Positions 842 to 20,176 of a stretch of 51,282 bases of DNA are shown here, piece after piece (the first letter of the stretch is position 1; every line of letters starts with the position of its first letter). Made by a program: the position numbers and the translations under genes. The notes beneath the pieces were generated by a model. That model ran no database searches. It worked only from the letters and a program-made list of their open reading frames with translations, and was not told where the DNA came from. The stretch is from an uncultured Nitrososphaerota archaeon. Its GTDB lineage: Archaea > Asgardarchaeota > Njordarchaeia > Njordarchaeales > Panguiarchaeaceae. The stretch is taken from contig CAZWPQ010000014.1 in the NCBI GenBank assembly GCA_964636085.1, forward strand, positions 1 to 51,282. The letters run 5' to 3'.

Positions 842-3800
842 TTGAGGAAACATATAGTTTTGGGTCTAATTTTCCTAGTATTTATTAGTCAAATACATCT
901 TACTGACTACAATACGAACAATTCGACAGATCAGGCAGAGCCTTCATCGGGTTTTAATATTAGCGATGATTCCAGTGAATACTTTGATGCCATCGTTAGA
1001 AATTCTCTTATCAATGGAACAATTCTTATTGACGGAGAATCCAAGGTTAGGTTTGAGAATGTATCCCTCCTAAACTCAATCGTTATTGTCAGAGGCAACG
1101 CTAAATTGGAGATAGTAAATTCATCTGCAAGTTACTTTATGGCGTATATAACGGGTAATGGTGAGCTACAATTAAGAAACTTTACTACTGACAATGGTAG
1201 AATTTTCGTAGGGGGGAATGGTCTGCTCGTCGTTGATAATGGATTTAATTCTTCATACACATATCTTGAAGCATATGGACGGTCGCGAATAAGAATATAT
1301 AGAGAGGTCTATGGAACAGTATCGATCGTTGTTGGGAACATGACTAGGCTGTATATGGAACACATAAAAGGAAGTGATGAAGATGACGGTGGCTTGGATT
1401 TGACCCTTTATGGAGATTCTTTTGCATCACTATACGACTTTAACAATAAAAACTTCAGTAACATAAGAGCTTTTGATTCTTCTCAAGCAATATTATCTAC
1501 ACTAAATGCGGATAGTGTATATCTATATGATAATGCCTCCATAGTAACCAATGATACTAACATAGGCTCTATGGAAGCTTATGGCGGCTCTAATCTAATA
1601 GTAGTAGCATCAAACATCAGTAACTTCGAAAATGATTATGTTGGTGTTAATGGATATTTCTCCTGGACTAACATCACTTTTATGAATTTGATGTCCCAAT
1701 CAATCGTTAACTTATCTCACTGTGATATACAAACTTTGCAATTTTTGAATGTATTCAACGACACTTTAATCATAGACTCCAGCGGTTGGGCCTACTCATA
1801 TAAATATGTGAACTATATTAATACTTCAAGTACTGCAGATACAATAATCAATATGACTGACTCCACCATAATGGTTGTTGACGCACCACAATTCCAATTT
1901 AGCGATGATATGACTATTTCATCTTTGATAATCATGGATGTTAGGGATACCGAAATAACAGACTCAAACATCATGGTCCACTCTAGCATTTATGTGGAGA
2001 ATACAACTATAAATATAGCCAAAACAAATATTTCAGCAGCGGACAGCTCCTACAGTCTAACAGTAGTTAATTCGATTGGATTCGTTGTTAACTCAAATAT
2101 AAATGAAACATTCGCAAGAATCGAAAATTCAGACATAGAATTCATAAATAGTACTCTAAATTGGACACCAGGCATAGGAGATGGCATCTATCTTGTTCGG
2201 TCTAGACTATTCCTCAACTCCAGTGTTATAGATAGTAATGTTATTATAGATACTATAAGAGTCGAAGATGGAACCTTTACATTCGAGGATGGAATAATCC
2301 GCACCATCTCGGGGGACGTAATCTACGGAATTGAGGGGTATGGTGAGGCACAAATAACTGGCGATGTTGAAATAGGTTGGATATATATTTTTGGATCACA
2401 CCTCTTCATAAATGAGTATATTTTTACTAGAGCAACATCTAGCTATGGAGATTACTACGTAAAGGTTCATGCCGTAGTATCAACTCTAATACTAAACGAC
2501 ACGCACGAAGATAAGTCTAGGGATGTTTATCTTAATATTACAATTGCAAATCTAACCACACTAAAGTGCTACAGTAGTGACGTTGACTATATATCATCAT
2601 ACGATAGCTCTATTCTAGGGGGAAACATAACAGCGAAGCACATAATTATGCATACAAGCACATTAAACATAACAAACTCTAGTATTAATGAGATCTATTC
2701 CTATGAAGATGGAGACATATATGTTAATGCCTCTAACATATCGGTTATGAAGATCGGTCTTGCTGAGGATAATGAACCCTCTCCACTAACTACCACTGAT
2801 GCTTTAATAGAATACAGCAATATAACTAGCATATATGCTTTCAGCTCTGGGACTCTAAGAATAACAAACTCGACTGTCGATAATGTATTCACACTATTCC
2901 CTACTACAATTATAGAGGATTCTACAATAGGGATTGTGACGAGGATGTACAAACTTCATACTGGTGATATTAATATCGTTTCTAATACACTTCCAAGTGG
3001 TTCCTATACGGATCTGCTTACCATTACTGATAGTTCTGTTGATTCCATTAGAGAGGGATTAGTGTTTCAGGGGTCTAACCTTAACCTTAACATAGAGAAT
3101 TCTGAGTATGTGGCTCTAGTAGTTTACTCAGTGGAGACAAACATTAAGGTGAATAACTCCCAAATAAATATTACTATACTTATGGCCGACAGCATAACCA
3201 TTAATAATAGCCTAATATTGGTGACAGAGGAGGAAACACCAATAGTATATCAAGCAACCGAGGTTGAGTTACAAAACACCTCGATAGTATCCTCTCATTC
3301 CATTTATATGTGCCCAAATGCAAGGCCTACTGGGACGCTTAGCGGAACACTAAGAATCAAGAACAGCACATTAACAGCAACCGTTACATTCATAGGGGAT
3401 TACAATGCGATATTAGATGATGTTGATGCAAGCGAGTCACACGAGATAAACATAGCTAACTCAAATATCAGTATAATAAATTCTGAGTTCTCAGCAATCT
3501 ACCTCAACAGATCCTGCGGAGCAATTAATGGTAGCAATATAGATCTCCTAATTATTGATGATGAAACTCACATTCTCTTAGAAGACATTGTGGTTAATGC
3601 GATTGTGATGCGCTATTGGCAGTTTTTCGGCCCGTGGTATTCAGGTCCCCCAAACATAGATTTTAGCTTCACAAGAGACATGCATCTTCACGTTGAAGAA
3701 TCCACAATAAATTATGTACAACCCATGTTTTATCATATTGATGATTCATCTTCAACTAGTTTTGATGATGGAGTAGTAAGTGGTGACTACAGCTTGAAGA

Positions 3801-4597
3801 CGATTTACGAGGATTCTGCTCTCGGAGATGCACAATTAACGATGATTGAAGTTATTGAACACGCCAAGGTAAGTATAGATCATTACTATTACTACAAAAT
3901 TATTGTTGGTTTCTGGGTGAATATAAGTAGTGATACCGAGCCCCCTGAAATTTTTTCACTGAATAGTAGCCACATAGACATAGAACTAGGCCTGCCTATT
4001 CTTCTATGCTATGAACTTCACGACGACTCGCCTTTAGGATTTATTGTTCTTCTAAATGGAACATACATCGATAATGGAAGCTATTATGACGGCTATTTAC
4101 TTATAGTCGATTTGACACCAAGAATACATGACGCGGGAACATATAATCTTACAGTAATAGCAACAGACACTAAACTAAATATGAACAAGACAGAAACTAC
4201 AATAGTAGTATATCCCTCAGAACCCCCAGAAATAACTGAGCATCCCGAAGATACTTATACAATTGAGGTAGGAGAAGACCTATCACTAATTTGGCGTGCA
4301 ACGGACAGATCGCCAAGCATATACAAAATATACCTCAATGGTGCAGTAATTCAAGAGGGAGAATGGGATTCGGATGAAGAAATAAGCTATTTATTTGAGG
4401 GTGAAGAAACTGGACACTATAACGTCACGATAGAATTCAAAGATGCCTTAGGCAACACGGCAAGCCATACAGTAGAAATTAATGTTAGCGAACCATCAGC
4501 CCGCATGTTCTCGACACAAACAGTGATTATAGTAACAATAGCGGTTGTCGCTGTCGCAGTAGCATTTTTGATTACTAGGAAATTCTTGAGAAGATAA
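842..4597 (+). CDS. large membrane-anchored surface glycoprotein: beta-helix/solenoid repeats, two C-terminal Ig-like domains, TM anchor
   Basis: N-terminal signal peptide, extensive I.NS.I-type repeats and many N-x-S/T sequons. Ig-like modules (DTEPPEI..., SEPPEITEHP...IWRATD...YNVTIEFKDALGN) precede a hydrophobic C-terminal helix followed by RKFLRR. Confidence 0.8.
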   Translation: MRKHIVLGLIFLVFISQIHLTDYNTNNSTDQAEPSSGFNISDDSSEYFDAIVRNSLINGTILIDGESKVRFENVSLLNSIVIVRGNAKLEIVNSSASYFMAYITGNGELQLRNFTTDNGRIFVGGNGLLVVDNGFNSSYTYLEAYGRSRIRIYREVYGTVSIVVGNMTRLYMEHIKGSDEDDGGLDLTLYGDSFASLYDFNNKNFSNIRAFDSSQAILSTLNADSVYLYDNASIVTNDTNIGSMEAYGGSNLIVVASNISNFENDYVGVNGYFSWTNITFMNLMSQSIVNLSHCDIQTLQFLNVFNDTLIIDSSGWAYSYKYVNYINTSSTADTIINMTDSTIMVVDAPQFQFSDDMTISSLIIMDVRDTEITDSNIMVHSSIYVENTTINIAKTNISAADSSYSLTVVNSIGFVVNSNINETFARIENSDIEFINSTLNWTPGIGDGIYLVRSRLFLNSSVIDSNVIIDTIRVEDGTFTFEDGIIRTISGDVIYGIEGYGEAQITGDVEIGWIYIFGSHLFINEYIFTRATSSYGDYYVKVHAVVSTLILNDTHEDKSRDVYLNITIANLTTLKCYSSDVDYISSYDSSILGGNITAKHIIMHTSTLNITNSSINEIYSYEDGDIYVNASNISVMKIGLAEDNEPSPLTTTDALIEYSNITSIYAFSSGTLRITNSTVDNVFTLFPTTIIEDSTIGIVTRMYKLHTGDINIVSNTLPSGSYTDLLTITDSSVDSIREGLVFQGSNLNLNIENSEYVALVVYSVETNIKVNNSQINITILMADSITINNSLILVTEEETPIVYQATEVELQNTSIVSSHSIYMCPNARPTGTLSGTLRIKNSTLTATVTFIGDYNAILDDVDASESHEINIANSNISIINSEFSAIYLNRSCGAINGSNIDLLIIDDETHILLEDIVVNAIVMRYWQFFGPWYSGPPNIDFSFTRDMHLHVEESTINYVQPMFYHIDDSSSTSFDDGVVSGDYSLKTIYEDSALGDAQLTMIEVIEHAKVSIDHYYYYKIIVGFWVNISSDTEPPEIFSLNSSHIDIELGLPILLCYELHDDSPLGFIVLLNGTYIDNGSYYDGYLLIVDLTPRIHDAGTYNLTVIATDTKLNMNKTETTIVVYPSEPPEITEHPEDTYTIEVGEDLSLIWRATDRSPSIYKIYLNGAVIQEGEWDSDEEISYLFEGEETGHYNVTIEFKDALGNTASHTVEINVSEPSARMFSTQTVIIVTIAVVAVAVAFLITRKFLRR

Positions 4598-6027: not shown

Positions 6028-6928
6028 TTACACTTCTGCTTGGGTATCTATGCTGGAGAGATACCGATAGATATTGTCGGCAAGAATAGCTACTATATTC
6101 CCCCTTTTAGTCTCTGATGCCATTTTCGAAGCCACATATACTGTGGCACCAGAACTTATACATGCGAGTATACCTTCCTCCCTTGCCAGTCGTATCATGG
6201 CCTCAACAGCTTTTTGTCTTTCAACCTCATAAATTTCGTCGATCAGGTTCTCACTAAGTAGTGGGGGCTTAAAAACTTTTGGATTAACAGTACCATCTAT
6301 CTCGTAGTCCTTTTTGGGGACAACACCCACGACTCTGATTTCTGGATTTCTCTCCTTTAGGAATTTGGCTAGGCCAATAATTGTCCCAGCAGTACCTATA
6401 CCAGCCACAACACAGCTAATATCCCCCCCTCAGATCCTCCCAAATCTCCCTTGCCGTACCAACATAATGAGCCAAAATATTCATATCATTCTTAAACTGA
6501 TTACGCATCAAAAACTTTTCGGGATTCTTAGCAACAATTTCTTTTGCACACTCATAGGCAACGGCCTCGCTCTCTACCTCCACAACATCAGCACCCAATA
6601 TCTTCAGGAGCTCCAACTTTTCCCTTGATATGTTCCTGGGAATTATTATTTTTGCCCTATAACCAAGATGACTAGCGATAAGAGCCAGTGCTATTCCAGT
6701 ATTCCCAGATGTTGGCTCTACAATGACCTTACTCCCCGATAATTCACCCCTATATAAAGCAGCTCTAATCATCATGGATACGATTCTGTCCTTTATAGAT
6801 CCCGATGGGTTATAATACTCTAATTTCGCATAGACATGTACATGCCTGTTTGAAAAACTTTTGAGGTGTATTAAAGGTGTCCTGCCGATAAGCTCCAATA
6901 TGTCCTCAACAATCACGATTATCACCAC
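6028..6928 (-). CDS. cysK: PLP-dependent cysteine synthase family protein (CysK/CysM/CBS-like), split by a 1-nt frameshift in a G7 run at 6423-6429
   Basis: Motifs IGRTPL, KLEYYNPSGSIKDR (PLP Lys), EPTSGNTGIALA, NQF.N..N..AHY, GIGTAGT and ISSGA. Removing one G joins the two ORFs as EDLRGDISCVVAGIGTAGT. Confidence 0.85.
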
Positions 6929-8314: not shown

Positions 8315-11164
8315 CTATTGAATACCTAGTCTGCTTTGAAGCCACAATTTTATCTCTTCTGATTCCTCTACGAGGCCAGACCATGAAGCGAGAAGTTGTT
8401 CGTAGTTGCTCTCAAGCTCACCATGCAGTCTGGTCAGCTGTTTAATTATCTTTGGATACTCCTTCTTTATGAATGCAAACATTATTGATGAGTCAGATTT
8501 GCTTATAAATACTGGTAGTTCGCCAGAGAGTACGAGTCTTCTAAGTTCTTTGCCAATTATCTCACTCGTCAATGTATGGATGCCGAGCAGTCCAGAACTA
8601 ATTAGATTTAGATCATATCTCGTCTTGAAATCCTCGGGCAATATGAACATGGGTACTCCACCAACATCGGCGATACCTATAGCTATTATGTCCCTCTTCC
8701 AATTCCTAAACACCCCATAAGTATATGCCCTATAAAGCAACAATACACCAACCAGAGAGATTATTAGTACATAGTCGGGAAAATGCGGGAGCAATATATC
8801 ATAAATATCTGGTATTCCATCCCCATCCGAATCCTTGGATTTGGGATTCAACATTCTATCTACTTCCTCCGAATCTGTTAGGCCATCACCATCTGTGTCC
8901 CTGTTAAGTGGATCTGTCCCATAGACCTTTGTCTCTTCATAGTCATTTAATCCATCCCCGTCCGTGTCGGATAGGAAGGGATCCGTCGAATAGTTCTCTA
9001 TTTCCTCTCCATCGCTAAGACCATCACCATCAGTATCGTCTTTAAGTATGTCAGTGCCGAGAGAAACCTCTAAACCATCGCTAAGACCGTCACCATCAGT
9101 ATCTGGCATATGTGGATTAGAAACATAGAAATAGAGTTCCCTATAATCATCTATTCCATCATCATCAGTATCCATGCTTGTCGGATCTAGTTCTAGTTGC
9201 TTCTCATCATAGTCGCTAATTCCATCCCCATCAGTATCTACAAGTGTAGCATTTGGATATGACACATATACATTATTTCTAGTACCTATCCAATACTCAA
9301 CACCGAAATAGATCTCATCGAAATCCATTAGGCCATCTCCATCTGTGTCGTTTTTTGTTGGGTCGGTCTTATATCCATGACGTGTACCGATCATGTAGTC
9401 CCCAACAACTTCATAGTAATCTAGTATACCATCATCATCAGTATCGTTGTCGCATGGATTAGTGATATATAGATTTTTACACCCACCATATTGGTCATAG
9501 ATTATGTCTGGCCTCTTCTCTAACTCAAACTTATCATCCAGGCCATCATTATCACTATCATAGAGATTAGGTTCGGTGCCATATGTGTAGACTTCACTAC
9601 CATCAATTATACCATCCCCGTCGGTATCGGATTCATTTGGATTTGTCAAGTATACGTTGGATTCCTCCCAGTCGCCCAAACAATCCTTATCTGTGTCACT
9701 ATAAATAATTATTGGTGCCCAATCATACTCTGAATCGACAATACAGATAGCTGACCCGAAGATATCATATGTATCCGTCATTACTGATGAAATTTTTAAT
9801 GGCCATATATCCCCTATACATAAATGCTTTGAGGCCCCCCACTCAAAAATACCAGTGGTTGTATTGACACTAGAGTTTATGAGCGTTGGGGCGTGCATTC
9901 CAACGTCCTCATCATACTCTAGCATCAGGAAATACACATCATTATCGCTATAGTCCGTGTCAACACACTCGATGTTGGATGGATATTTGCTCTCTAGGGC
10001 TATGTCTTCATATAGGAAGGCAATATCGGAATTATTTCTGATGTCACCAACATAGCAATACATTTGGAAAAGATACTGCCTAATCTCTGTATGGCCTTCC
10101 CATAGAACTATCATGTAATTCGTTCCATTATATAGCGAGATGGATATCCACTTGTAGTCTGGTGGAGAACCGAAATAATCAGAGTAAAACGACGATATTC
10201 CCCCTCCATATAGGCTTGTGTAATTATCAGATATATTCCATGCCATGACCACTATCCAATCTAGATCTATCTGATTCCAATGCAATGTTGTGGCTCCATA
10301 CACAACATCGTTGTCAAGTATAACATTACTAATAGCTATTATTTTGTTATAGATGTAAAAATCATAGTATGTAGAATTTATTCCACTCTCTCCCCAATAC
10401 GTCATATTTAGACAATAGCCAACGAATAGGCCCACGCCCCATAGGAATTCATAATAGCCATAACCATACATCAGGACAAAATCGTTATTATAGCTATCTA
10501 GCGAAATACCAACGGAAAAGAAATACCGACCAAGACTATAATCGGTAATATTCTCTAATAAAACAAATTCATCACCCACGAGATCTAGGTTTTCGTACTT
10601 ATATACGTAGATGTGTGATACCTTAAGCTTGATTGTCCATTGAGTAGTAGTTAGTGAAAAAGCTAGGATATATGTCCTATTTTGGAGTATTGTTGTGTCC
10701 AAATGGGAGATCATTGGTGTTAAGTTTGCATCAGCGACCACCGTGAAGTTTGCAATCTCATAGTAATGAATATATGCGTGCCTTCCTTGTATATCAACAT
10801 TATCTGTATCCCATCTATATAGGTGAAATACGAATGATACGTTTTCTTCTTCATCCCTCTTCTCCACAATCATTGAGTAGACAATATCTCCATCGCTTGG
10901 ATCTATAGCTACGTCAACATATGTGACATTTCCACACTCTCTAATACTATCAGTATACTTGGCTACCCAGCCATGCGAATAAATGTTCTCCACCAAAATG
11001 CTTTCCTCCTCAGCAACATGGATATATGAAGAGTGATTATAATCCCTGTTAATTGCACCATCCCCAAGATTTTCGTTACACTGAATACATCCTTGCGAGC
11101 GTCCCAAACTAAGATTAAAAACAAAAAGCATGATCACGAATACAGGAATGTACTTCCCCCCCAT
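8315..11164 (-). CDS. single-pass receptor-like protein: signal peptide, ~470-aa beta-rich ectodomain, ~12 DxDxDG Ca-binding (bacterial TSP3-like) repeats, TM helix, cytoplasmic longin/roadblock-like domain
   Basis: Repeats of the form [10 protein letters not shown]...TDP, then TM YVLIISLVGVLLLY. The C-terminal ~128 aa ([15 protein letters not shown]...DLNLISSGLLGIHTLTSEI...LESNYEQLLASWSG) follow the beta-beta-alpha-beta-beta-beta-alpha-alpha longin pattern seen in Asgard proteins. Confidence 0.75.
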   Translation of the reverse strand: MGGKYIPVFVIMLFVFNLSLGRSQGCIQCNENLGDGAINRDYNHSSYIHVAEEESILVENIYSHGWVAKYTDSIRECGNVTYVDVAIDPSDGDIVYSMIVEKRDEEENVSFVFHLYRWDTDNVDIQGRHAYIHYYEIANFTVVADANLTPMISHLDTTILQNRTYILAFSLTTTQWTIKLKVSHIYVYKYENLDLVGDEFVLLENITDYSLGRYFFSVGISLDSYNNDFVLMYGYGYYEFLWGVGLFVGYCLNMTYWGESGINSTYYDFYIYNKIIAISNVILDNDVVYGATTLHWNQIDLDWIVVMAWNISDNYTSLYGGGISSFYSDYFGSPPDYKWISISLYNGTNYMIVLWEGHTEIRQYLFQMYCYVGDIRNNSDIAFLYEDIALESKYPSNIECVDTDYSDNDVYFLMLEYDEDVGMHAPTLINSSVNTTTGIFEWGASKHLCIGDIWPLKISSVMTDTYDIFGSAICIVDSEYDWAPIIIYSDTDKDCLGDWEESNVYLTNPNESDTDGDGIIDGSEVYTYGTEPNLYDSDNDGLDDKFELEKRPDIIYDQYGGCKNLYITNPCDNDTDDDGILDYYEVVGDYMIGTRHGYKTDPTKNDTDGDGLMDFDEIYFGVEYWIGTRNNVYVSYPNATLVDTDGDGISDYDEKQLELDPTSMDTDDDGIDDYRELYFYVSNPHMPDTDGDGLSDGLEVSLGTDILKDDTDGDGLSDGEEIENYSTDPFLSDTDGDGLNDYEETKVYGTDPLNRDTDGDGLTDSEEVDRMLNPKSKDSDGDGIPDIYDILLPHFPDYVLIISLVGVLLLYRAYTYGVFRNWKRDIIAIGIADVGGVPMFILPEDFKTRYDLNLISSGLLGIHTLTSEIIGKELRRLVLSGELPVFISKSDSSIMFAFIKKEYPKIIKQLTRLHGELESNYEQLLASWSGLVEESEEIKLWLQSRLGIQ
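8808..9697 (-). repeat. intragenic array of ~12 DxDxDG Ca-binding repeats
   Basis: Counted from DTDKDCLGD to DSDGDGIPD in the translation. Confidence 0.85.
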
Positions 11165-11400
11165 GGATCATCGCCTTTTAATTGAAAACTAATTAAATAT
11201 CAAAATCCTCATTAATACTTAAGAGAGTATCCAAAAACTTCTATGTCCCTACAATCACGTATTGGCTGCTGAACATCCAGAAATTACAACATCGGCTTCG
11301 CCCTGCCTAGACTTCTAAGAGAGCGAGGAATACCTCAACAAATACACATGTAGGAGCCAAACATGAATAAAGAGCGTGGCCTATTAAATGAATAATTTTT

Positions 11401-11416
11401 GGAAAAAATAAAAAGA
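11401..11416 (-). terminator. oligo-T terminator after the three-gene operon
   Basis: The minus strand reads TCTTTTTATTTTTTCC immediately after the stop at 11417. Confidence 0.5.
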
Positions 11417-12283
11417 CTACCTAAGCGCCCTTCCCATGACAACTCGAATAAATTCCTCCCCAAACTTCACAGCATACTTTCTTGGAGATGTTAAGAAGAT
11501 CTTCTTGGCTTCCTCGGAAGCTATTATTGCGGGGACCTCACCCCTAGACGTCAACATATTATATATGCCTGGATGATACTTCTTAAGACATTTGATACAA
11601 TGAACATCAAAGTAGAACCCATATCTCAACACCTTGATCTCCATAGTGAAGCCAAAAGGACCCAATATCCCAAGAGTAACCAACTCTGCTCCAGGGGGGA
11701 TCTTTATTCTCACAGGTCTACGAGATACCGATCCAACTCCTCCCCCTGCTGGTAGGAACTGTGGGCTCTCCCCTGTTGGGAGTATTATGGCTTCGTTATG
11801 GGCTAATAGCTTGCCACAATGATGGCAAATGTACATGTTCTCTGACTTTGGCGCAACATATGGAGCAGTTGTTGGAAAAAGGAAATATAGCATAATGAAT
11901 AAAAAGCCTATAATTGTCAGGTATATCCCAATATTGCTGGCACTGAATTCGCCTATAGCTGCAGCTGATAGGATGCCTACTAATAATAAAAGTAAACCAA
12001 AAATAAGATACATCATATTATAGACAGTCCTATAGATAGGCATCCTCATCGTTATTCGAGGGGAAGATATATTGCTCTTATCCCATATCACTATTTTCTC
12101 GACAATCTCTGCCTTCTCTACCGCTTCGCGACTCACAGAATGTTGAACAGTCTTAATATACTTGCCAGCGACTAGGCTGACGATGCCTTCTACATCTGTC
12201 GGAGGCATCCTCCTTGCCGGTCTCCTGCCAAATAGGGTTTTTAAACCCGCTAGTGGCCGAGAGCGCAAGTATCTACTAGACAC
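11417..12283 (-). CDS. membrane-hairpin protein with Arg-rich N-terminus and split C4 Zn-finger (CHHC...HCxxC), paralog B
   Basis: Two adjacent TM helices, then ENMYICHHCGK ... DVHCIKCLKKYHP. Homologous to 12290..12973. GAGGTGAGGAG SD. Confidence 0.7.
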   Translation of the reverse strand: MSSRYLRSRPLAGLKTLFGRRPARRMPPTDVEGIVSLVAGKYIKTVQHSVSREAVEKAEIVEKIVIWDKSNISSPRITMRMPIYRTVYNMMYLIFGLLLLLVGILSAAAIGEFSASNIGIYLTIIGFLFIMLYFLFPTTAPYVAPKSENMYICHHCGKLLAHNEAIILPTGESPQFLPAGGGVGSVSRRPVRIKIPPGAELVTLGILGPFGFTMEIKVLRYGFYFDVHCIKCLKKYHPGIYNMLTSRGEVPAIIASEEAKKIFLTSPRKYAVKFGEEFIRVVMGRALR

Positions 12284-12289
12284 ATCTCC

Positions 12290-12973
12290 TCACCTCATCG
12301 CTCCAATTGGTTGCATTCTAAATCTTTTTAGCAATGCATAAATCCTCTTCTTCATGTATTCTGGACCCCTCTCAGATAATCTCGAGTAGACATCTGGGTG
12401 ATATTTTCTAAGGCAACTTTGACAATGGACTGCATAGAAATTACCTCTTTTTTCTGGCCTCCTAACGCCTCTTAGAACACGCATTGTATATCTTGGATAC
12501 TCATCTTCATATTTTATAATAACAGCATCGGTCTCAGGAACTGCTTTTCCACAGTGATGGCAAATATAGATGTTCTCCCCCGCGAACACGGTCTCTGTTG
12601 TTCTAAGTCCGAAAAGACTTCCAACAGCGAGGATTGCCGCGAGTACAAGTAGGACTATCTCCTTAATTATAATACCAAAAATCAATAGCATAACACCTAT
12701 CATCGCCACAGCTAGTGCGGCGGGATTCAGCTTCGATATTTTCTGCCTCCCGATGTAGACACTTTTTGGAGGCAAGTTTGTAGTTTCGTCTATAACCAGT
12801 TTTTCAAGGAAGTCCACAGTTTCGTAGTCCTTCCTATCAATCGGATACTCTTGGACCCTCGTGTAGTTCATCGCTATTAGATTAACGCTCTCCTCAACAT
12901 CCGTCATTGGTGCAGTTGGGCGTCTGGGGCCCGCATATCTTGTGGGCCTTCTGGCCTGTCTTCTGGCGGCCAT
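12290..12973 (-). CDS. membrane-hairpin protein with Arg-rich N-terminus and split C4 Zn-finger, paralog A
   Basis: Two adjacent TM helices, then ENIYICHHCGK ... AVHCQSCLRKYHP. Gaps to both neighbours are 6 nt. Confidence 0.7.
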   Translation of the reverse strand: MAARRQARRPTRYAGPRRPTAPMTDVEESVNLIAMNYTRVQEYPIDRKDYETVDFLEKLVIDETTNLPPKSVYIGRQKISKLNPAALAVAMIGVMLLIFGIIIKEIVLLVLAAILAVGSLFGLRTTETVFAGENIYICHHCGKAVPETDAVIIKYEDEYPRYTMRVLRGVRRPEKRGNFYAVHCQSCLRKYHPDVYSRLSERGPEYMKKRIYALLKRFRMQPIGAMR

Positions 12974-12979
12974 ACCTAC

Positions 12980-14761
12980 CTACCTGCCTATACTTTCTAA
13001 TCTTTCTTTGAGGCCCTCAAATATCTCCATGACCTTGGGTATTATCTTGGGAGGCACAATCGATCTTATCAGTACTTTAACATCGGATAGTTTCCTACGC
13101 TCACTTACTGTTGATTTGCTTGCTCTTCCTTGGCCCGTTAGTGATACACTGACATGTTTTATTCTAGAGTATACTTCTATAAACAATGTAACGGATAGGC
13201 CCTCAATAGCCCCCTTATACAGTAAATAGCGTAGTTCTACAATCTCGTCCCATGGCTCCGCAAATCTTACCCTCTTTATGTCGCTATCATATAGCATCGA
13301 GAATCCGAGAGCCTCCAATGTTTTCTTGAGTGTTTTAACTACCGGAACCATATCCACCATTGATAATGGTATCTCTTTCTGAATGGGCTCCCTTAGCTGG
13401 ATCTCTATTGGTATTCTCTCCTCCATAGTTAGACGGATCTCTGTCCTAGTGCCAGGCAGCGGATACCCCAGTACATTTTGTGGGACATAGTAGCGTGCCT
13501 TGAAGCTTATCGGGTATCCCATGGGGGTGAAATAGACCAAACCATAGCTTATTCTTCTGAGCACTCGAGAAATGACTCCAGTTATTATATCTGGGGGGTA
13601 TACAAAACTTCCTTGGACCCTTATCTTTATTCCCTTCTCTTCTGAGCTCATCACTTTTGATATTACGCTTTGGCGAATACCTATGGCGAATGATACCTCT
13701 TGATTTATGTTAAGGCTTCCTCCCGTGATCTCTATTTTGCCCTCTCCAGGCTTTATATCTACCCTACCCTTAATGTTGAGGGGAATAATAACATCTTCTA
13801 TTCCGAAGCTGGCTTCGGGGAATATCAATTCTATCTTGTCGATATTTATGGTCGACTGGAATAGTGTGCCTAGAGTCTCATTCTTAATGCTGACAACAAG
13901 AATTACATAGTCAGACACCTTACCAAAGCTCTCCTTAATGTTGGTTATAGTTTCAATAAACTGAGTAGGCGATAGCATAAGTTGTCTAGCAAGCACATCT
14001 ATACGTTGCAGTTGCGACTGTAATCCATATTTGAAAGCCTCTTCAGTTAGGTCCAAAATCAACCAACTTATGGAAAGCACATCGGTCCTCAAGAATTCCT
14101 CTATGTTTATGTTCCTTATTATTATCTCCTCATGCTTCTTTAAGTATTCCTTAAGCTTATCGAGGTCAAGAGTGTATGGGAATTCAAAAATCACCTTATT
14201 TTCCTTGAGTATATCAGTAACCTTCTTATTTACTATTAGCTTGAACACACCCTTAGATATCTGCTTTACTCCCTCCGTTATACCGCTCTCATCGAGCTTT
14301 ATAAATTCTGGTACAGGAATGGCAAGGTAACCAAACATTGTCTTAGGAGGGAGCTCACCCTCCTCCATCTTCATTGCAGTGATCCATATAGGCTCTGGTG
14401 GATATGTTATGTCCTTCCTAGGGATAATCCTAAGTAATATCTTGCCATCAAGAGACATCTCAGATTCTCCTATACCTGATTTCGTAATTTTGAGATCTAG
14501 AACATTCTTTATTAACACATCCGTAGGTCTATACGGATACTCATAATAGAACATACCATAGCCATTACCAATCCACTCAAAATACTCTTTAGGCCTCGAT
14601 GGAACCGATGGTCTTGCAGGAAGCCTCCGAGCCTTAGGTATCCCTGGTTTCAGCTCGATTGGCTTTTCCTCTTCTTCCTCTTCTCCCTCCTCTTCCTCCT
14701 CTTCTAGTAATTCTAGTCCTAGCTTGCTACCAGCCATAAACAACACACCCCCTTCAAACAA
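12980..14761 (-). CDS. soluble beta-rich protein with acidic/Pro-rich N-terminal tail; possible mu-homology (adaptin) sandwich plus appendage-platform-like C-terminal domain (likely start 14737)
   Basis: No signal peptide or TM, with an EEEEEEGEEEEEE tract near the N-terminus. By-eye pattern similarity to AP mu subunits and adaptin platform subdomains. The gene itself is well supported; the fold call is tentative. Confidence 0.45.
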   Translation of the reverse strand: MFEGGVLFMAGSKLGLELLEEEEEEGEEEEEEKPIELKPGIPKARRLPARPSVPSRPKEYFEWIGNGYGMFYYEYPYRPTDVLIKNVLDLKITKSGIGESEMSLDGKILLRIIPRKDITYPPEPIWITAMKMEEGELPPKTMFGYLAIPVPEFIKLDESGITEGVKQISKGVFKLIVNKKVTDILKENKVIFEFPYTLDLDKLKEYLKKHEEIIIRNINIEEFLRTDVLSISWLILDLTEEAFKYGLQSQLQRIDVLARQLMLSPTQFIETITNIKESFGKVSDYVILVVSIKNETLGTLFQSTINIDKIELIFPEASFGIEDVIIPLNIKGRVDIKPGEGKIEITGGSLNINQEVSFAIGIRQSVISKVMSSEEKGIKIRVQGSFVYPPDIITGVISRVLRRISYGLVYFTPMGYPISFKARYYVPQNVLGYPLPGTRTEIRLTMEERIPIEIQLREPIQKEIPLSMVDMVPVVKTLKKTLEALGFSMLYDSDIKRVRFAEPWDEIVELRYLLYKGAIEGLSVTLFIEVYSRIKHVSVSLTGQGRASKSTVSERRKLSDVKVLIRSIVPPKIIPKVMEIFEGLKERLESIGR

Positions 14762-14839
14762 AATGAGTCATTATTTTTGTAGAAGAAATATTAGTAATAT
14801 TGGGTTAATATATAAAAAACTAAAATAATACGGGGTATG

Positions 14840-17800
14840 CTATTTTCCGAATACTTCCTCGAATTCCTTCTCGATCTCCGTTTTCGCTTCCTCTTCTTCG
14901 ACTATCTCCACTGTAGGACTAACACCTAGTCTATTTGCCAGCCAAATCTTTGCATCTTCTATTTCTTCTGCCAGACCACTCCAAGATACAAATAATGGGC
15001 CATATAACTTTTCTAGTTCCTCATGGAGCTTAGCCAGTTGTTTGATTAGTCTAGGATACTCCTTCTTCACGAATACCCATGCTATTGAGGACTCGCCCCT
15101 ATTAATGAATATGGGTACCTCCCCAGAGAGTACTAATCGCTTAAGCTCCTTGCCAGAGATCTCACCAGTCATCGTGTGTATTCCCATCAATCCAGAGCTT
15201 ATGAGACTAGTATCGTATTTTGTCTGGAAGTCCTCTGGGACAACAAACATTGGGACTCCTCCAACATCCGAAAGGCCAAAGGCAACTATATCTCTCCTCC
15301 AGTTCCTGAATAGTCCGTAGGAATAGGACTTATAGAATGCTATCGCGACCAATATCACTAATAGGAAATACCAATCAGGTGTAAGTGGGAACAATATATC
15401 TAGCTTATCGGGTATCTTGTCATTATCCGTATCCTTGTCCGTTGGGTCAGTATTCTTGACCTTATATTCCGTATAGTCAGATAGTCCATCACCATCAGTA
15501 TCAGTATTGTTGATCAAAGTACCAATCATATATTCTTCCCCATCCAATAAACCATCACCATCAGTATCGTCATTGTTGGGATCACCACCAATCCTTATCT
15601 CATCTCCATCCCCCAAGCCATCATCATCAGTGTCTTTATCCGTAGGATCTGTATGATACATAAAGGCCTCCGAATAGTCATCAAGACCGTCACCATCTGT
15701 ATCGGGAGACGTCGGATCCATCTTCCTAAGACCAATACCACTAATATTGATGCCAGAAACCTCATCCCCATCCGTTATATTGTCGCCATCTGTATCATTA
15801 TAAGTGGCGTTGGTTCCATAAATAACGATCTCCTCATAATCACTCAACCCATCACCATCAGTGTCATCATAAATGGCACTTGTTTCATAAGTAATTATCT
15901 CCTCATAGTCGCTTAGCCCATCACCATCAGTATCGTCCACTGTTGGGTCTGTATAATATACCATCACTTCATCACAGTCACCCAGTCCATCACCATCGGT
16001 ATCTGCTGAGCTAGCATTAGTTTTACGGATACCAATACCAGGGACATCAACACCATAGATCTCTTGGCCATCAGTAAGACCGTCATTATCAGTATCAACA
16101 TCAGTAGCATTAGTATTATACACAACACACTCCTTATAATCATCAACACCATCATCATCAGTATCGCGGTCTGTCGGAAGTGTTTGATATATTACTATCT
16201 CATCATAATCAGAGAGCCCATCACCATCAGTATCGTCCACTGTTGGGTCTGTATAATATATCATAGCCTCCTCATAGTCTCCCAAGTTATCGCCGTCGGT
16301 ATCACCCCTGTGGGGGTCTGTATGGCGCATTCCTATACCCGTAACGTTTATACCATGTACTTCTACCCCATCTAGAAGCCCATCGTTATCCGTGTCATTA
16401 CATGTAGCATTGGTTATATATACTACAACCTCATCCCAATCATTAAGACAATCGTTATCTGTATCAATCGATTTGGGGTCTGTAGATAGTATGTGTATTT
16501 CCTCATGATCTCCTAATCCATCTCCATCCGTATCCCACGAGGTAGGATCCGTAAGGAATACCTTGCATTCATCGTAGTCATTTATCCCATCGTAATCTGT
16601 ATCGTTCTCTGTAGGATCTGGATACCTTATCCCCACACCACTGATGTTTATGCCTGTATATTCCTCATAATCCGTAAGACCATCATTATCTGTGTCGGCA
16701 TCACAAAGATCTGTGCCTAGATAATCCTCGACCATGTCGCTGAGCCCATCTAAATCAGTATCTGTTTTTCGCGGATCCGACCCATATAAATATTCCATAT
16801 AGTCACTTAGCCCATCTCCATCAGTATCATATTTTGTTAGGCTCGAGTTAGTCATATAAGCAACTATTGATCCATTAAAATATGTCACATTTACTTCCCA
16901 TCCAACAACTTCATCATAGTCTATTAGCGAATCATCGTCAGTATCTGGATCGAGAGGATTTGATAGATATATCTTAGCTTCTTCACTATCACTGAGCATA
17001 TCATCATCGGTGTCTGAATCGAGAGGATCTGTCTTGACTATTCCAATCCGACTTATATTAACACCTGTTACTTCCTCATAATCAGAAAGACCATCGCTAT
17101 CAGTATCATTATCTAAGGGATCTGTACCTAGCTCATTATACTCCTCGCCGTCTAATAAACCATCGCCATCAGTATCATTATCTAAGGGATCCGTATAACT
17201 TATCGCAGCCTCATCATAATCCGTTAATTTATCATCATCAGAGTCTTTTTCTGTAGGGTCTGAATACTTCTTTCCGGGAAGACCCGGAATGCTCATACCA
17301 TTAACCTCATCGTAGTCACTTAATCCATCACCATCAGTATCTGGGTCGTTTGGATCTGTAGTTACCCACCCAACACCAGGGACATAAGTTCCATTTACCT
17401 CTTCAAAATCTGAAAGGTTATCGCCATCCGTATCAGAGCTATTGGGATCAGTATCATAGATAAGGATTTCATCATAGTCTGTTAGATTGTCGCCGTCCGT
17501 ATCAGGATCATTAGGATCTGTGAAATACGTCGCTACTTCCTTATAATCTATTAATCCATCACTATCAGAATCCTTATTTAATGGATCTGTATTATATACC
17601 ATGACTTCTTCGTAATCGGAAAGTCCATCGCCATCGGTGTCATCTCTTTTTGGATCTGTACCAATGTTATTAACCTCCTCTCCGTCAATTAAACCATCAT
17701 CATCTGTATCATTATTTAATGGGTCCGTCTTTGTGACATATATTTCTTTATAGTCCGACAATCCATCGTTATCCGTATCTTCACTGGTTGGATCGGTACC

Positions 17801-20176: not shown

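Follow-up and report, generated by a model that had tools for sequence, protein, structure and literature searches.

The stretch of DNA analysed here (the window) comprises the first 51,282 nucleotides (nt) of contig CAZWPQ010000014.1 from a member of the Njordarchaeales (Asgard), whose genome assembly is 2.4 Mb in 102 contigs and 83% complete; among named lineages, Candidatus Njordarchaeota is its closest relative. Five contiguous genes on the minus strand, designated A to E, lie between positions 8315 and 20176. The explanation preferred here, at a probability of roughly 0.68, is that two independent things stand side by side at this locus: a pair of putative surface receptors, A and E, with a calcium-binding TSP3 stalk and a longin-type cytoplasmic tail, and a separate operon, B-C-D, encoding a soluble protein and two zinc-ribbon membrane proteins. 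A previous sequence-only reading placed all five genes in a single receptor-adaptor module. That unit is unsupported because the neighbourhood is not conserved, and the adjacency of A and E to B-C-D is genome-specific and probably incidental.

Linkage and transcription of the five genes

B-C-D or B-C was found at seven other genomic places, and no longin receptor adjoins any of them. In G295 (locus L001) B-C-D lies between a DUF3782/PDDEXK gene and a gene for a small membrane protein, and in L002-4 it is carried on short contigs. In a more divergent lineage (L085-87), B is represented by two genes of 372 and 136 amino acids (aa) (L085:1168-2763, and likewise in L086 and L087), followed by one C-like gene and then a polytopic membrane protein gene, with ThiS upstream. 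This split indicates that the last ~135 residues of B form a separate domain. A hidden Markov model of the receptor tail gave no match at an expectation value (E) <=10 in any of these loci (L001-4 and L085-87).

The receptor loci give the reciprocal picture. In six of them, from three congeneric genomes (L147-152), B, C and D are absent and no other gene is shared with the window; B, C and D are likewise missing from the four further TSP3 receptor loci in the source genome. All seven f4-family genomes encode receptors, as do G296 and G294, and neither B nor C/D was found in any of these. With these receptor loci devoid of B, C and D, and copies of B-C(-D) elsewhere devoid of a receptor, the proposal of a five-gene unit was not upheld.

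The spacing of the genes is consistent with this. The open reading frames (ORFs) agree with the five co-oriented genes as originally placed, and the gaps between B and C and between C and D are exactly 6 nt each, as had been described for a tight inner operon. The gap between A and B is 78 nt to the start of the B ORF and 102 nt to the likelier start of B, and that between D and E is 252 nt. In the A-B spacer (14762..14839, minus strand), an oligo-T run follows the stop codon of A and a TATA-like element, TTTTTATATATT, can be read from the sequence; in the D-E spacer (11165..11416, minus strand), an oligo-T run stands right after the D stop codon, and AT-rich TATA-like elements precede E. Since TATA-like elements and an oligo-T run behind the stop codon are found in both spacers, three transcription units, A, B-C-D and E, can be inferred, and B-C-D may be transcribed from a promoter of its own.

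Architecture of receptors A and E

Hydropathy and Pfam analyses give A (14840..20176, minus strand, 1778 aa from the translated ORF) and E (8315..11164, minus strand, 949 aa) the same plan: an N-terminal hydrophobic signal, a head, a TSP3 stalk, a single transmembrane segment and a conserved tail. The heads, of about 500 aa each (~510 aa in A), match no known family and resemble each other only weakly (23% identity, E 5e-6); identity between the tails reaches 64%. The stalk of A matches Pfam TSP3_bac (PF18884) in 19 stretches (E 5.9e-75, 247 bits, cut-off 25) and that of E in six (E 3.5e-27, 94 bits, cut-off 25). Strict DxDxDG motifs number 35 in A and 11 in E, so that both proteins carry the repeated motif, above the Pfam cut-off, that marks TSP3 calcium-binding repeats.

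In A (all on the minus strand), the stalk occupies 15407..18646 (aa ~511-1590, from Pfam and the motif count) and the transmembrane helix 15332..15373 (aa ~1602-1615, from hydropathy), next to which is the juxtamembrane sequence YGLFRNW. The longin-type cytoplasmic domain follows at 14927..15289 (aa ~1630-1750), as recognized with AlphaFold2 (AF2), Foldseek, the VIA structure search and ESM Atlas, and the protein ends in an acidic linker and a C-terminal acidic-aromatic motif (14843..14872). In E (minus strand), the transmembrane segment predicted from hydropathy is at 8732-8773 and the longin tail at 8321-8689, and the C-terminal motif is absent.

The description of A and E as paralogous type I membrane proteins, with a variable head, DxDxDG stalk, transmembrane segment and conserved cytoplasmic domain, is confirmed by the Pfam matches, hydropathy and tail identity. 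The two belong to one family but are not mutually closest; within the same genome, the tail of A is nearest to that of the C44 copy and the head of E to that of the C38 copy.

Two short cytoplasmic motifs recur among the 23 receptor relatives. The juxtamembrane YGxFR[ND]W is kept in 21 of them. The acidic C-terminal peptide EEF[EK]xxFG (EEFxxxFG), which stands after a variable acidic linker, occurs in 15 of the 23 longin-tailed receptors (it is also seen at the C-termini of P0010-P0029); F-x(2,3)-F is found within the final 16 residues in 15/23. The peptide is present in A and absent from E and from a short-tailed subgroup, and its sequence looks like a short linear docking motif. Whether YGxF acts as a YxxPhi sorting signal of the eukaryotic type was considered separately; despite its conservation, no mu-homology protein was identified, and YGxF is therefore kept as a motif of unassigned role.

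Fold of the cytoplasmic tail

The modelled structure places the tail in the longin/Roadblock superfamily, as a divergent member with longin topology. At E<=0.1, Pfam has no match for the tail of A or of E, and comparison with the PDB by sequence and by profile yielded chance-level matches only. An alignment of 77 sequences (A3), with the domain excised from 70 Asgard loci matching the tail profile, produced an AF2 model with a predicted local distance difference test score (pLDDT) of 92.9 and a predicted template-modelling score (pTM) of 0.86, superseding a run on eight mostly paralogous sequences (pLDDT 47). In this model, DSSP assigns strands to residues 5-11 and 17-21, a helix to 31-49, strands to 55-58, 64-68 and 73-78, and helices to 83-105 and 111-125. 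Longin and Roadblock domains are told apart by helix placement, the longin lacking an N-terminal helix and possessing two C-terminal helices (Tran et al., PMC10933270). The tail has the longin order of two strands, a helix, three strands and two helices. Strand 1 begins at model residue 5, soon after the juxtamembrane segment behind the transmembrane helix, and the N-terminal helix that precedes strand 1 in Roadblock/LC7 (PF03259) is absent. The Roadblock core (two strands, helix, three strands) is present.

An exhaustive structure search against 48,161 PDB chains (VIA) gave as its top match the Asgard Roadblock3 9jue (Z-score 12.9, 99 residues aligned, root-mean-square deviation 1.9, 21-26% identity), with other Roadblocks at Z 11.5 (3kye) and Z 11.0 (MglB). 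Longin domains scored similarly: MON1A at Z 11.6 (122 residues aligned), SYBL1 at 11.5 (113), the Lokiarchaeal 8yqg at 11.3 (121) and Sec22 at 10.6, with the N-terminal domains of AP sigma and mu subunits at Z 8.6-10.4. Alignments with longins span 113-124 residues, a full-length likeness, and those with Roadblocks 95-103. Foldseek returned 43 matches at E<=1e-3; among the matches listed, all are Roadblock, MglB or LAMTOR, with 9jue, MglB and LAMTOR on top (Roadblock-type matches at E 9e-5; MglB at a TM-score of 0.60). In the ESM Atlas, the neighbours of the tail include a Fuz/MON1 longin cluster (TM-score 0.73) and a 376-member Lokiarchaeal cluster (TM-score 0.70), 45-47% of whose members have Arf, Roc or Ras domains. 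The earlier assignment of the tail to the longin/roadblock group is thus borne out by the AF2 topology, VIA, Foldseek and ESM Atlas. No curated longin sequence model was matched above threshold, the best among relatives being Fuz_longin_1 at a sub-threshold E of 3.4e-4. Sub-threshold Pfam matches among the 77 family members were to Fuz_longin_1 (13), Intu_longin_1 (nine), Sybindin (four), Robl_LC7 (two) and Longin (two).

Distribution of longin-tailed proteins

With the tail profile, matches were obtained in 269 of 400 Asgard species genomes, representing 78 of 85 genera. A transmembrane segment lies directly upstream of the domain in 19 of the 29 best per-genome matches; some of these carriers are large and cross the membrane once, and the others contain 4-11 hydrophobic segments. 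About 25 protein clusters have the TSP3-transmembrane-tail architecture. In other Asgard lineages, proteins of 877-1781 aa join a different ectodomain to a transmembrane helix and a longin-type domain; these ectodomains consist of a NosD beta-helix with immunoglobulin (Ig) domains, of FG-GAP with Big_7, or of sequence from no known family. A winged-helix domain sometimes follows the longin domain, and in L138 and L140 this is wHTH-PRTase_assc, in a large membrane protein. No description of the ectodomain-transmembrane-longin arrangement was found in the literature searched; it is apparently a wide Asgard architecture that has so far gone undescribed.

The source genome encodes six TSP3-transmembrane-tail receptors (A, E and four others). 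A seventh, distant copy of the tail, with 29% identity to that of A, forms the C-terminus of a 366-aa protein with many hydrophobic segments, encoded outside the window (G000:C1:112410-113513). No recurring neighbour gene was found among the tail-copy loci of this genome. The genome has eight strong Ras-family GTPase matches and no canonical Roadblock above the cut-off.

Soluble relatives of the tail domain were also observed (L026:1171-1845, L029:1492-2172 and L032:1480-2421), with either a weak N-terminal MIT-like match (E 1e-3 to 0.06) or a C-terminal AsnC-type helix-turn-helix.

Proteins encoded by B-C-D

The ORF of B extends over 12980-14761 (minus strand). The most likely start is the ATG at 14737, giving a gene at 12980..14737 and a protein of 585 aa, because a Shine-Dalgarno-like GGGGGTG lies ~8 nt ahead of that ATG and because the 585-aa form is the protein on record. 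B had been described as a soluble protein of 593 aa; hydropathy agrees that there is no transmembrane segment, but the length should probably be revised to 585 aa. The protein has an acidic N-terminus and an invariant TPMGYP.

B matches nothing in Pfam, NCBIfam, PHROG or PADLOC at E<=0.1, including the Pfam models for Adap_comp_sub, mu-homology and appendage domains, and comparison with the PDB by sequence and profile revealed nothing beyond chance level. The label of an adaptin-like or mu-homology protein, which the sequence-only reading had attached to B, therefore finds no backing in these databases. A feature search of the ESM Atlas gave no lead (best score 0.76). The Atlas model of a B orthologue, P0008, is unreliable (pLDDT 0.44) and gave no meaningful match; just its C-terminal ~140 aa weakly resemble small archaeal hypothetical proteins. 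Prediction of a complex between B and the full cytoplasmic tail of A, including YGLF and EEFxxxFG, gave ipSAE (interaction prediction score from aligned errors) values of 0.01 and 0.00; with just four rows in the B alignment, this carries no weight for or against binding.

C (12290..12973, minus strand, 227 aa) and D (11417..12283, minus strand, 288 aa) are paralogues (26% identity, E 6e-20), each with an arginine-rich N-terminus, two hydrophobic helices and a CHHC...HCxxC site. Searches of PHROGs, PADLOC and NCBIfam returned nothing for either. The predicted zinc ribbon of C (12413-12562, minus strand) stands behind the arginine-rich N-terminal cytoplasmic part and the transmembrane hairpin; that of D (11588-11827, minus strand) has a longer loop between its two zinc knuckles. 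Residues C138, H139, H140, H183, C184 and C187 are invariant in seven C/D-type sequences, and the two conserved Cys/His knuckles predict a zinc ribbon in both proteins, Pfam Zn_ribbon matches being sub-threshold. This agrees with their earlier description as paralogous hairpin/Zn-finger membrane proteins. Orthologues of D at L001:4985-5944 and L002:3107-4117 have an extra hydrophobic segment of ~25 residues between the knuckles, which D of the window lacks. In the C-like protein of L085, the first knuckle no longer has its second Cys (CHHG).

Rarity and spread of the B and zinc-ribbon pair

Close relatives of B are very few. A word-indexed search of 5.8 billion proteins identified three, and an exhaustive HMMER search of 1.84 billion proteins four representatives; in a profile search of the 5.8-billion-protein set with a merged B alignment (A7), only the four known close relatives are among the matches listed. 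B is present in two of 400 Asgard species genomes and in two or three of the five genomes of its own genus.

A C/D profile detected distant CHHCG...HCxxC membrane proteins in genomes of four other Asgard families. In G127, G150, G151 and G134 the gene directly preceding that for the CHHCG protein encodes a protein of 516-684 aa. Three of these four distant B-like proteins (G127, G150 and G151) contain TPMGFP and the fourth (G134) TPAGFP, in a relative position matching that of TPMGYP in B, and alignment of the two B groups with hhalign gave a probability of 95% (E 3.8e-8, 255 columns). The distant proteins start with a zinc ribbon where B has its acidic stretch. Full-length B-like proteins are encoded in six of ~400 Asgard species genomes, from families f1, f20, f23 and f24. 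Many phylum-wide matches obtained with alignments A5 and A7 were discarded as non-specific, being restricted to the N-terminal zinc ribbon of the distant B-like proteins. In the distant CHHCG proteins at L100 and L101, the transmembrane hairpin lies between the knuckles.

The distant pairs are flanked by housekeeping genes such as SRP54, FEN1 and NAD kinase, and no relative of B was found in IMG/VR viral contigs. From sequence comparison, the conserved core is a B-like soluble protein with a CHHCG zinc-ribbon membrane-hairpin protein encoded directly after it, a deeply divergent, Asgard-only and newly found pair. The zinc-ribbon membrane protein (C or D) may bind B and so tether it to the cytoplasmic face of the membrane.

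Alternative explanations

In the model first put forward for the locus, B would be a mu-homology or appendage-like adaptor docking on the longin tails or on the YGxF or EEFxxxFG motifs, while C and D would shape or scaffold the membrane. The five genes are indeed co-oriented and contiguous, the tails are longin-type like the N-terminal domains of AP sigma and mu, the receptors bear conserved short cytoplasmic motifs that are potential docking sites, and the predictions put B, C and D on the cytoplasmic side. Against this model, the tail domain is near no other B-C(-D) locus, and B, C and D are missing both from the six congener and four other own-genome receptor loci and from the receptor-bearing genomes of f4 (7/7), G296 and G294. 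Together with spacers that resemble a terminator and then a promoter, and the absence from B of any adaptin, mu-homology or appendage Pfam match at E<=0.1, this makes a single module improbable. That B-C(-D) is an accessory cassette, for example one of defence, mobile-element or viral origin that landed in a surface-protein island, also appears unlikely. It would account for the very patchy spread over four families, with presence in two or three of five genomes within the genus, for the extreme divergence between copies and for the different neighbours in every genome; however, PHROG and PADLOC gave no match, IMG/VR viral contigs hold no relative of B, and the scanned neighbours, which are housekeeping genes, show no integrase, transposase or tRNA-flank signature.

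A further alternative concerns the tail, which might function as a Roadblock/MglB-type, GTPase-activating protein (GAP)-like homodimer and not as a longin-type platform. Roadblock or MglB entries lead both Foldseek and VIA (9jue at Z 12.9 and a deviation of 1.9; MglB at a TM-score of 0.60). The lack of an N-terminal helix and the two C-terminal helices are, however, the longin arrangement (PMC10933270), longins align over 113-124 residues and Roadblocks over just 95-103, and Robl_LC7 was matched by two of 77 family members vs 13 for Fuz_longin_1; a Roadblock-type function is accordingly thought to be very doubtful. Several observations do weigh against the preferred reading of two independent elements, longin-tailed receptors and B-C-D. 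The best single structural match of the tail is a Roadblock and not a longin, so that the longin subclass call rests on topology. The promoters and terminators in the A-B and D-E spacers were called by eye, an appendage-like or mu-like fold is possible for B, and the independent B-C loci are a handful, mostly on short contigs, so that the absence of linkage rests on few cases; the adjacency of receptors and B-C-D in this genome could be functional after all. None of the receptor loci examined has a linked GTPase gene; in MK-D1, genes for GTPases are reported not to share an operon, as a rule, with those for Roadblock or longin proteins (PMC10933270).

Comparison with known systems

The order of elements in the tail is the same as in the Mon1/Ccz1/Fuz-type guanine nucleotide-exchange factor (GEF) longins, the longin SNAREs (VAMP7, Sec22 and SYBL1) and the Lokiarchaeal Roadblock-Longin 8yqg. 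Structural alignments with these cover 113-124 residues at Z 10.6-11.6, and relatives of the tail match Fuz_longin_1, Intu_longin_1 and Sybindin below threshold. At the sequence level, however, neither tail significantly matches any longin in Pfam or the PDB. The domain of A and E forms the C-terminal cytoplasmic tail behind the transmembrane segment, whereas longin SNAREs have the opposite arrangement of an N-terminal longin and a C-terminal transmembrane segment. Roadblock/LC7 and MglB proteins (9jue from Prometheoarchaeum, 6hjm and 3kye) share the core with the tail and give the best structural scores, which by analogy suggests a dimeric GTPase-binding platform. They differ in that the tail lacks the N-terminal helix, has a second C-terminal helix and does not reach PF03259.

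The N-terminal domains of AP/COPI sigma and mu are longin folds and match the tail at Z 8.6-10.4. In contrast to mu, where B is concerned no mu-homology or appendage domain was detected by sequence, and B and the tail are on separate proteins that are unlinked in other genomes. With the Myxococcus TSP3-repeat surface proteins CglD, MtsC and MtsD, the stalks of A and E have the calcium-binding repeats in common: they match TSP3_bac and, below cut-off and through the same repeats, the NCBIfam models for CglD and MtsD. The Myxococcus proteins are bacterial lipoproteins or cell-cohesion proteins without a transmembrane-plus-longin tail, and the likeness is limited to the repeats.

Proposed function and significance

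Some Asgard proteins are regarded as forerunners of eukaryotic membrane trafficking, and these include small GTPases as well as longin and Roadblock domains. In the explanation favoured here, A and E, as members of a Njordarchaeales family, would each present an extracellular head on a calcium-binding TSP3 stalk, anchored by one transmembrane helix to a cytoplasmic longin-type domain. By analogy with characterized longin and Roadblock domains, the tail most likely dimerizes and serves, fixed to the membrane, as a platform for binding or regulating a small GTPase or some other partner in the cytosol. A and E may thereby connect events at the surface, either adhesion or ligand binding, with signalling inside the cell. 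The candidate GTPase partners would be drawn from at least eight Ras/Rab-like proteins encoded in the genome, and the C-terminal EEFxxxFG peptide of many members (A but not E) is a candidate docking motif.

More broadly, and as a tentative proposal that may well prove wrong, ectodomain-transmembrane-longin proteins could be an Asgard-wide class of transmembrane receptors, in which a longin platform at the inner face of the membrane links adhesion or ligand binding to small-GTPase regulation and EEFxxxFG recruits a further effector. Such proteins might represent a prokaryotic forerunner of the eukaryotic longin GEF/GAP platforms. A longin domain fused behind the transmembrane segment of large surface proteins offers a specific path, open to testing, that would lead from the cell surface to GTPase signalling, and B with its zinc-ribbon membrane protein is a second, separate Asgard-only module. 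The value of the locus lies in this receptor class and in the B/zinc-ribbon pair, and not in the proposed five-gene module; the negative result for the latter is also of value, as it guards against taking a chance adjacency for a proto-adaptor complex, which would be speculative.

Neighbouring genes

Directly upstream of A is a gene for a clostripain-family C11 peptidase with Big_7 and Glucodextran_B Ig domains (20336-22876, minus strand), and beyond it one for a 1086-aa protein with a weak FG-GAP match (22916-26176, minus strand). A 1251-aa Ig-like protein is encoded at 842-4597 of the window. Together, these three genes make the region a surface-protein gene island. A gene for a pyridoxal phosphate-dependent enzyme (Pfam PALP) at 6028-6928 (minus strand) is interrupted; its two ORFs, 170 and 126 aa long, are read in different frames and jointly span profile positions 2-155 and 163-295; this is a putative frameshift, pseudogene or assembly error.

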